From the UHGV virus genome UHGV-1698782: DNA of 14,373 bases. One strand, 5' to 3'. Source of the stretch: a virus. The translations under genes and the position numbers were made by a program. Under the pieces are notes generated by a model that made no database searches, had not been told where the DNA came from, and saw only the letters and a program-made list of their open reading frames with translations. Numbering within the stretch: the first letter of the stretch is position 1; the number at the start of each line of letters is the position of its first letter. This document shows positions 7,441 to 7,602 of this stretch, one piece after another.

Positions 7441-7602
7441 TTAGCGAATACCACCACCGCCAGGACGAGAATCAGCAGAACGACCACCACAACGAGAGCC
7501 GTCAGCAGCGGTATCATTGTCGTGTTGGCAACGACCAGCGAATGATTGAGTCGAAGCTACCAGTGACAACAAAACGAACAATACAGCAAATGATTTTTTC
7601 AT
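7441..7602 (-). CDS. Small exported protein: 22-aa Sec-type signal peptide plus a 31-aa Gly/Arg/Ser/Asp-rich mature peptide with two Cys
   Basis: MKKSFAVLFVLLSLVASTQSFA | GRCQHDNDTAADGSRCGGRSADSRPGGGGIR; canonical n-h-c signal peptide with an AxA-type cleavage site; codons are mostly GGT/CGT/GCT; stop codon is followed at once by a terminator. Same strand as cI, 97 nt downstream of it. Confidence 0.5.
   Translation of the reverse strand: MKKSFAVLFVLLSLVASTQSFAGRCQHDNDTAADGSRCGGRSADSRPGGGGIR

Follow-up and report, generated by a model that had tools for sequence, protein, structure and literature searches.

This study concerns a 14,373-nucleotide (nt) stretch of the virus genome UHGV-1698782, here called the window, and a small minus-strand gene within it that follows a cI-type repressor gene and is predicted to encode an exported pre-peptide of 53 amino acids (aa). 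The region around this gene is 100% identical to the chromosomes of five human Escherichia coli isolates (2015C-3121, 2018-166, STEC2018-553, UCPROB-001, and UCPROB-002) and lies in the immunity region of a lambdoid prophage, which in 2015C-3121 carries stx1a. Along the minus strand, the repressor gene is followed by the small open reading frame (ORF), a gene for an SDH-family Clp-fold serine protease (7261-6359), and a 56-codon ORF, beyond which lie a plus-strand hicA-hicB pair and then Rha, Gam, Exo, and other early genes. A sequence-only reading of the window had proposed a small secreted peptide in the first frame of this ORF (frame 1), co-directional with cI, and the two genes do lie on the same strand. 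Conservation and the substitution pattern place frame 1 beyond chance, and we regard it as almost certainly a real protein-coding gene.

The pre-peptide and its conservation

The ORF translates as MKKSFAVLFVLLSLVASTQSFAGRCQHDNDTAADGSRCGGRSADSRPGGGGIR, which divides into a signal part, MKKSFAVLFVLLSLVASTQSFA, and a mature part, GRCQHDNDTAADGSRCGGRSADSRPGGGGIR. Both parts were found as the sequence-only reading had described them: the N-terminal 22 aa show the n-h-c organization typical of Sec signals and end in S-F-A (positions -3 to -1), and the remaining 31 aa contain two Cys residues. The mature peptide is rich in Gly, Arg, Asp, and Ser, with a computed mass of 3087 Da, an isoelectric point of 8.1, and a grand average of hydropathy of -1.28. 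AlphaFold2, run with a 33-sequence alignment, placed a confident helix at residues 2-22, and the model suggests that, outside the putative disulfide loop, the mature peptide is probably disordered. Judging from its sequence, the peptide is very likely exported and cleaved. The term "secreted" in the sequence-only reading holds insofar as a Sec-type signal is present; however, with this signal only, release into the medium is not expected, and as a peptide of 3 kDa is unlikely to pass the outer membrane unaided, "exported to the periplasm" is the better description.

Two other assignments were considered and rejected. The protein is not a lipoprotein, as it has no lipobox and an Arg (in the window) or an Asn (in homologues) sits between the Gly and the Cys (...SFAG-R-C...). 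A sulfatase-type C-x-P-x-R modification motif was dismissed on inspection because the spacing is wrong.

Searching the PHROG profiles matched residues 1-53 to positions 1-53 of the 53-position profile PHROG 14503 ("membrane associated protein"; moron/auxiliary/host takeover) with E = 8.9e-38. The family includes WP_071525586.1, named "transmembrane anchored protein" in RefSeq, as well as AEW24557.1 of phage TL-2011b and WP_000708858.1. The window protein is a member of this family, with 75-92% identity over its full length and the same arrangement of a signal followed by C-x12-C...SRPGG, whereas the location differs: most members are found in ε15-like/Uetakevirus prophages near ant and ejection-protein genes, and the window gene follows a lambdoid cI. 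The gene is thus already in the databases under an uninformative name, and its kind is known, namely a small exported prophage moron in an immunity-region slot.

In total, 58 homologous clusters share 64-92% identity with the window protein, in hosts comprising E. coli, Shigella, Klebsiella, Citrobacter, Cronobacter, Franconibacter, Pantoea, Raoultella, Salmonella, Pectobacterium, and Dickeya. The alignment of homologues reveals a hydrophobic core that varies freely, followed by A22 and G23, which are at least 90% conserved. Against the variable signal peptide, the C-x12-C stretch and the DGSRCGGRSADSRPGG segment of the mature part are nearly invariant; 16 mature columns are strictly so (C25, D30, A32, G35, S36, R37, C38, G40, R41, S42, D44, S45, R46, P47, G48, and G49), and all 16 residues are present in the window protein.

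The nucleotide alleles carry the signature of strong constraint on the frame-1 protein. We collected 39 distinct alleles from 86 phage and prophage loci. Most of the 36 alleles that are 162 nt long encode an identical protein, and their variable sites fall at codon positions 1, 2, and 3 in the proportion 5/3/31. Over the 25-codon core from the first Cys to PGG, the ratio of non-synonymous to synonymous substitution (dN/dS) was 0.006-0.15 against fifteen homologues wherever dS was computable, and synonymous sites were saturated in the rest. Comparing the window with the TL-2011b allele over this core, 14 of 19 synonymous sites differ alongside a single non-synonymous change. Frameshifts or stops in frame 1, which the sequence-only reading had named as signs of a non-coding or regulatory role, were found at none of the 86 + 72 phage loci or the 46 genome loci.

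Downstream of the gene, the sequence-only reading had also placed a hairpin terminator directly after the stop codon, and this was borne out: a 7-bp G+C-rich hairpin (-10.8 kcal/mol, z = -1.95) begins after a gap of 4 nt. If the shorter stem GGCCG/CGGCC is taken, TTTATTTC comes next on the gene strand. A pattern scan scores it on the plus strand, with the tail GTTTTT, and the terminator is probably bidirectional. The stem is kept in all seven aligned homologues, while the loops differ.

Table 1. Positions in the window of the pre-peptide gene, its parts, and adjoining features
Feature	Position	Strand	Details and basis
Pre-peptide coding sequence, 53 aa	7441..7602	-	ATG 7602-7600, TAA 7443-7441; PHROG 14503 match, conservation, RefSeq WP_071525586.1
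Predicted signal peptide, 22 codons	7537..7602	-	MKK, hydrophobic core, TQSFA before predicted signal peptidase I cut; sequence, conservation, AlphaFold2
Predicted mature peptide, 31 aa	7444..7536	-	C25-x12-C38 loop, then invariant GGRSADSRPGG tail; conservation, mini-domain matches
Intrinsic terminator	7409..7436	.	Stem 7436-7417 AAGGCCG/CGGCCTT, loop CTTTCC; T-rich tail on gene strand, GTTTTT on plus strand
Spacer from cI stop to peptide ATG, 96 nt	7603..7698	-	No terminator-like site in scan
cI-type repressor (HTH_3 + Peptidase_S24; cI/LexA family)	7699..8412	-	Upstream gene of presumed operon; 96 nt 5' of peptide gene
Inserted cassette, approximate extent	7369..7698	-	Comparison with prophages that have cI directly before the SDH protease gene
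+1-frame ORF, 79 aa	7278..7517	-	ATG 7517; starts MIPLLTALVVVVVLLILVLAVVVFAKNK; not a gene

The mobile cassette, its placement, and the mini-domain family

The term moron denotes an additional gene, equipped with a promoter and a terminator of its own, that has entered between two genes lying next to each other in related phages. In lambdoid prophages of the LHM10-1 type, cI is followed after 72 nt by the SDH protease gene, no peptide gene is present, and homology to the window resumes at or below 7368. This direct adjacency of cI and the protease gene implies that the segment of about 7369-7698 is an insertion, which is the defining property of a moron. Like the morons of HK97 and HK022, the window gene is inserted between otherwise adjacent genes, has its own terminator, and has variable neighbours among its carriers; in contrast, HK97/HK022-type morons have their own promoter, whereas the candidate in the window, at 7660-7633, is within chance expectation. 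The comparison of these prophages identifies the gene as a mobile "moron" cassette in an Stx1a (Shiga toxin 1a) lambdoid prophage of E. coli.

The usual home of the cassette is the group of ε15-like (Uetakevirus) temperate podophages and prophages, including TL-2011b, phiv142-3, HEMP4, EC.W1-9, ZX5, the Klebsiella phages ST512-KPC3phi13.3, Kp4865-1, and BUCT711, and, in a more distant form, the Alcaligenes phage Piluca. In the ε15-like phages, the gene lies approximately 1 kb downstream of the antirepressor (BRO-N/Ant) gene with a variable gene between them, and it is convergent with pilot/ejection-protein genes; a T-run terminator precedes it and the conserved hairpin follows, while the neighbours vary. 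The window and the ε15-type cassettes are homologous over a segment that begins about 17 nt 5' of the ATG and stops at the hairpin. Alphaproteobacterial viral contigs carry the gene as a solitary unit whose orientation opposes that of both neighbours. The TL-2011b-type allele, annotated as "hypothetical protein", was found in 533 of 5426 complete E. coli genomes (~10%) and the window-type arrangement in five, and a megablast search of the locus against the deposited phage genomes of INPHARED returned no match to the cI-adjacent arrangement.

The region upstream of the gene in TL-2011b yielded no match to a promoter consensus, although a conserved TTGTGG...TACAnT stretch is visible in the alignment. 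This stretch, a possible promoter, belongs to a conserved leader shared by the ε15-type cassettes (L004 3924-4000; the same stretch in L003, L005, L006, and L015), which spans about 75 nt from the upstream terminator to the ATG and also contains a hairpin, GCCAC-N6-GTGGC/T, just before the ribosome-binding site. The window is without this leader.

The placement of the gene in the window bears on its expression. In lambda, the slot downstream of cI is the position of lysogen-expressed exclusion genes. The window gene resembles lambda rexA-rexB of the PRM operon in being co-directional with cI, lying just downstream of it with no terminator between, and having a terminator after it; in contrast, it has no sequence relationship to rexAB, and its product is a predicted 31-aa periplasmic peptide rather than cytoplasmic or membrane proteins. 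The same order of repressor, peptide gene, and terminator on one strand recurs with four cI-type repressors, which we class as unrelated. In addition to the window, it is present in the related prophage L002 (strain JNEC-KY204), whose cI is 69% identical to that of the window; in Tolumonas (L095), where the repressor is 29% identical to that of the window and is separated from the peptide gene by 29 nt with a good AAGGA ribosome-binding site; and in the viral contig L164, with 137 nt between the two genes and a repressor that shares about 20-28% identity with the others. The recurrence of one passenger gene with four unrelated repressors argues that its placement in the immunity transcript was selected, as for lambda rexAB. 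A promoter-like sequence in the spacer, TTGGGA-16-TATTAT (7660-7633), has lost its -35 part by deletion in L002, where the gene still directly follows its cI, and this makes read-through from cI the likelier source of transcription. Taken together, the layout suggests that the peptide gene is probably expressed in the lysogen.

Beyond the phage homologues, the mature peptide is a free-standing copy of a widespread, undescribed mini-domain that usually follows a signal peptide. By profile search against 1.84 billion representative proteins, accepting E <= 1e-3, we identified 456 clusters at 50% identity that carry the motif, with the consensus G-x-C-x4-D-x-A-x-DGSRCG-x-R-[SA]-[AS]-x-x-RPGG. Both Cys residues are invariant in 93 larger proteins. 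The mini-domain was encountered in five settings: alone after a signal peptide, very often ending one residue past PGG; between a signal peptide, which it directly follows, and a transmembrane helix with a cytoplasmic domain; at the extreme C terminus of lipoproteins and other proteins; in tandem copies; and, as a four-Cys variant (CPCPYNxAxNGSRCGGRSAYSRPGGASPLCY), beside an SH3_3 domain. A signal-like segment immediately precedes the motif in about 80 of 140 distant representatives. Scanning one genome per species located members in Enterobacterales, Tolumonas, many Rhizobiales, Paraburkholderia, cyanobacteria, and Polyangiaceae. The Pfam domains that recur beside the motif among the 93 larger relatives are PG_binding_1 (three proteins), SH3_3 (three), and PG_binding_2 (two), and these partners point weakly to the cell wall or envelope. 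No Pfam model covers the motif itself in 10 + 93 larger relatives and no NCBIfam model does so in the 10, and a homologue search with the single-pass membrane relative P0094 returned only proteins named "hypothetical protein".

Among the representative proteins P0059-P0204, C-terminal and stand-alone copies very often end in PGGQ, PGGR, PGGK, PGGN, PGGY, or PGGW, and this frequent end one residue after PGG may reflect a requirement for a near-terminal PGG. One hit, P0088 (805 aa, 11 stretches), resembles a Cys-rich repeat protein with no relation to the family and is likely to be a false positive.

A possible role in the cell envelope

The best overall explanation, and the one toward which we lean, is that the gene is a moron whose exported peptide is made in the lysogen and serves as an envelope conversion factor. 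According to this explanation, the gene would be cotranscribed with cI in the lysogen from the position that rexAB occupies in lambda, as the layout suggests. The Sec signal of the 53-aa precursor would be cut after S-F-A, releasing the hydrophilic 31-aa peptide into the periplasm, where a disulfide between C25 and C38 would be expected to close a 12-residue loop. That an unstructured peptide is so extremely conserved implies binding to a conserved partner, and our guess is that this would be a conserved envelope component contacted through the invariant DGSRCGGRSADSRPGG segment. The likeliest role for such a peptide would be that of a lysogenic-conversion factor in the cell envelope, and the best single guess is that it may protect the lysogen against incoming phages or envelope-attacking agents. 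Taken as separate claims, an envelope-binding role in conversion or exclusion is put forward tentatively, and exclusion specifically seems rather doubtful.

Small phage-encoded superinfection-exclusion proteins that are exported by a signal peptide and act in the periplasm are exemplified by T4 Spackle and P1 Sim. The likeness of the window peptide to these proteins is by analogy: PHROG and Pfam scans gave no sequence similarity, and the peptide is far smaller and predicted to be disordered. On a broader scale, the free mini-domain, which appears ancient and spans at least 456 clusters in Proteobacteria and Cyanobacteria, might serve temperate phages of many hosts, which would encode it time and again in the repressor operon, as a decoy or inhibitor of a conserved envelope component, acting in the periplasm, although we rate this as unlikely. 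The target might, for example, be a component that incoming phages need to cross the cell wall, so that the peptide would represent a new class of very small superinfection-exclusion or conversion factor; this too is a speculative suggestion of low probability.

Provided that lysogens do produce the peptide, roughly one in ten of the sequenced E. coli strains, along with many Klebsiella, Enterobacter, and Pectobacterium, would carry a near-constant periplasmic peptide of prophage origin, and in the window its gene sits in the immunity region of a Shiga-toxin prophage. The surprises are the constraint on a 3-kDa peptide that is predicted to be disordered, how widely this peptide occurs, and how large and old the family of the unnamed mini-domain is. 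Such constraint implies a specific and conserved envelope partner, whose identity could reveal a new mechanism of exclusion or conversion and would provide the first function for an unnamed mini-domain that is widespread in Gram-negative bacteria.

Several observations weigh against this explanation or parts of it. Nothing favors exclusion over any other envelope role. The AlphaFold2 model of the mature part, with predicted local distance difference test (pLDDT) values of 40-64 overall, about 60 in the loop and below 50 at residues 41-53, offers no fold clue to the target. A sequence profile search of the PDB returned nothing at E <= 10, and the peptide matched no model in Pfam (E <= 1), NCBIfam, or PADLOC, the last of which gave nothing for its five neighbours either. 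Literature searches, whether based on the sequence motif, on the product name "transmembrane anchored protein", or on the accessions, found nothing on the protein. The distant relatives P0070 and P0077 have a signal peptide and a further hydrophobic segment before the motif, which would make the motif cytoplasmic in these proteins. When the neighbours of 46 genome loci were clustered, none was conserved across taxa. With respect to expression in the window, the Shine-Dalgarno sequence is weak (AGAG at 7612-7609), and the number of promoter-like hits, among them the site at 7660-7633, is within shuffle expectation. Moreover, in the ε15-like prophages, which are the commonest home of the gene, it does not lie beside a repressor, so that lysogen expression there rests on the putative promoter.

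Among the alternatives, the one that survives best is a direct benefit to the host, in which the Asp-rich disulfide loop would buffer metal ions or the peptide would keep lysozyme, colicins, or antimicrobial peptides away from peptidoglycan or from an envelope protein. Many chromosomal proteins outside phages, in Rhizobiales and cyanobacteria, contain the mini-domain, which is also found together with peptidoglycan-binding and SH3 domains, and the loop has a D-x-D...DG composition, all of which would suit a host function. However, the Excalibur (PF05901), EF-hand, and Ivy models gave no match (E <= 1), and His27 and several of the Asp residues are not conserved in the wider family, and we therefore view this alternative as a minor contender. 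Resemblances to the TolB-box of colicins (DGS...) and the CKPHDC loop of Ivy (CQHD) are short, and neither is conserved in the wider family.

It is less probable still that the N terminus stays uncleaved and that the product is a signal-anchored inner-membrane protein with a 31-aa periplasmic tail. The PGAP/GenBank name "transmembrane anchored protein" would agree with this, as would the relatives P0073, P0087, P0094, and P0117, which are single-pass membrane proteins in which the motif adjoins the transmembrane helix. However, the name is an automated or author annotation, and the anchor of these single-pass relatives is a second helix located after the motif. The at least 90% conservation of the small-x-Ala and Gly positions (A22 and G23), next to a hydrophobic core that drifts, is instead the pattern of a cleaved signal.

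The sequence-only reading had also offered signalling as a function, and a communication signal that feeds the lysis-lysogeny decision, in the manner of arbitrium or quorum sensing, is disfavored to the point of being very improbable. Like AimP of the Bacillus phage arbitrium system, the product is a short signal-bearing precursor encoded beside lysogeny-control genes, and the cI-adjacent layout recurs. A private code would be expected to diversify, whereas the mature sequence is almost identical across phages with unrelated repressors and across genera. No AimR-like or other receptor-like gene lies alongside: the neighbours are cI, the SDH protease, and HicAB genes here, and ant/DUF2335 and virion genes in the ε15-like phages. 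In addition, the host is Gram-negative, Sec export to the periplasm is the only export that is evident, and most copies of the gene are not near a repressor.

The hydrophobic +1 frame and the surrounding sequence

The sequence-only reading had described a second, fully open frame within the gene, encoding a hydrophobic helix like a type I toxin or small membrane protein, and attributed its openness to a GGT/CGT repeat. The +1-frame ORF is present in the window, where it begins with a 24-residue hydrophobic run; however, the frame is not fully open, as it has stops at +1-frame codons 1 and 15 and is open only from gene codon 15 on. The supposed repeat dissolved on inspection, since Tandem Repeats Finder detected none in 7380-7660, and what remains is biased codon choice. 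In the mature part of the window allele, 22 of 31 codons (71%) end in T (GGT, CGT, GCT, and TCT), a share that is 24-27% for cI and for the helicase gene. A T in second position occurs in a single mature codon. Because the third base of frame 1 is the second base of the +1 frame, a T at this position yields Val, Leu, Ile, or Phe, and the scarcity of second-position T makes a +1-frame stop almost impossible. The hydrophobic +1 frame is thus a by-product of codon choice in this allele. In the TL-2011b allele, where 13 mature codons end in T (42%), the hydrophobic reading is lost. The high share of T-ending codons in the window allele may be due to drift or to adaptation of codon usage to strong expression once the gene had moved into the cI operon.

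That the +1 frame is translated, with or without frame 1, to give a small hydrophobic membrane peptide or type I toxin is accordingly an explanation to which we give hardly any credence, even though the ORF with its hydrophobic start is present in the window and most alleles keep the frame open. Its start codon, the ATG at 7517, is missing in 33 of 39 alleles, in which the Asn-Asp codons AAT GAT at this place are replaced by Ser-Asp, AGC GAT. Common alleles read LTAPAAVGVLRIPARAAVAFVK or similar in the +1 frame, with Pro, Arg, Gly, and Thr as replacements, and the substitutions track frame 1, concentrating at its third codon positions, which are the second positions of the +1 frame. Moreover, the +1-frame ORF crosses the terminator hairpin, a point on which the sequence-only reading had itself doubted that it was a full-length gene, and an Rfam scan of 7200-7800 on both strands (E <= 1) matched no antitoxin, small RNA, or other family. 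This negative result has a use of its own, in that T-ending codons in a gene rich in Gly, Arg, Ala, and Ser can produce an ORF in the +1 frame that looks convincingly like a "hydrophobic helix" but is spurious. A non-coding nucleotide repeat or regulatory RNA element downstream of cI, for which the biased composition noted in the sequence-only reading is all that speaks, can practically be dismissed, as neither a tandem repeat nor an Rfam family was detected and the protein is preserved while synonymous sites are saturated.

On the plus strand, a promoter-like sequence (TTGATA-17-AACAAT, 7262-7290) points at the shared hairpin at 7417-7436 with its GTTTTT tail, and the two could define a transcript of about 140 nt that is convergent with the peptide gene. 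The folding of this putative stretch is unremarkable (z = -1.6), it has no Rfam match, and its segment 7300-7413 matches the five window-type genomes only.

Between the immunity region and the early genes lies cargo consisting of the SDH protease module (6188-7261, minus strand) and hicA-hicB (5476-6071, plus strand). The protease module follows a cI gene directly, in the rex position, in about 150 other E. coli genomes; it gave no PADLOC match and may be an uncharacterized lysogen-expressed module. Its leader contains an 11-nt direct duplication at 7336-7357, with two copies of ATCACCCAAAC (GTTTGGGTGAT on the minus strand), of which the LHM10-1-type prophage has one copy only.

Further along the window, the recT gene is truncated by IS1A in the 2015C-3121 prophage copy (L001 2916-3753), whereas the corresponding place in the window (~1997-3016) holds an intact 339-codon ORF, so the window derives from a prophage copy without the insertion sequence. 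Downstream of the Q antiterminator gene, the window ends in a perfect tandem repeat of the 7-nt unit GACCAGC, 13.3 copies long (14281-14373), where the coordinates of the 2015C-3121 record would instead place the start of stxA.

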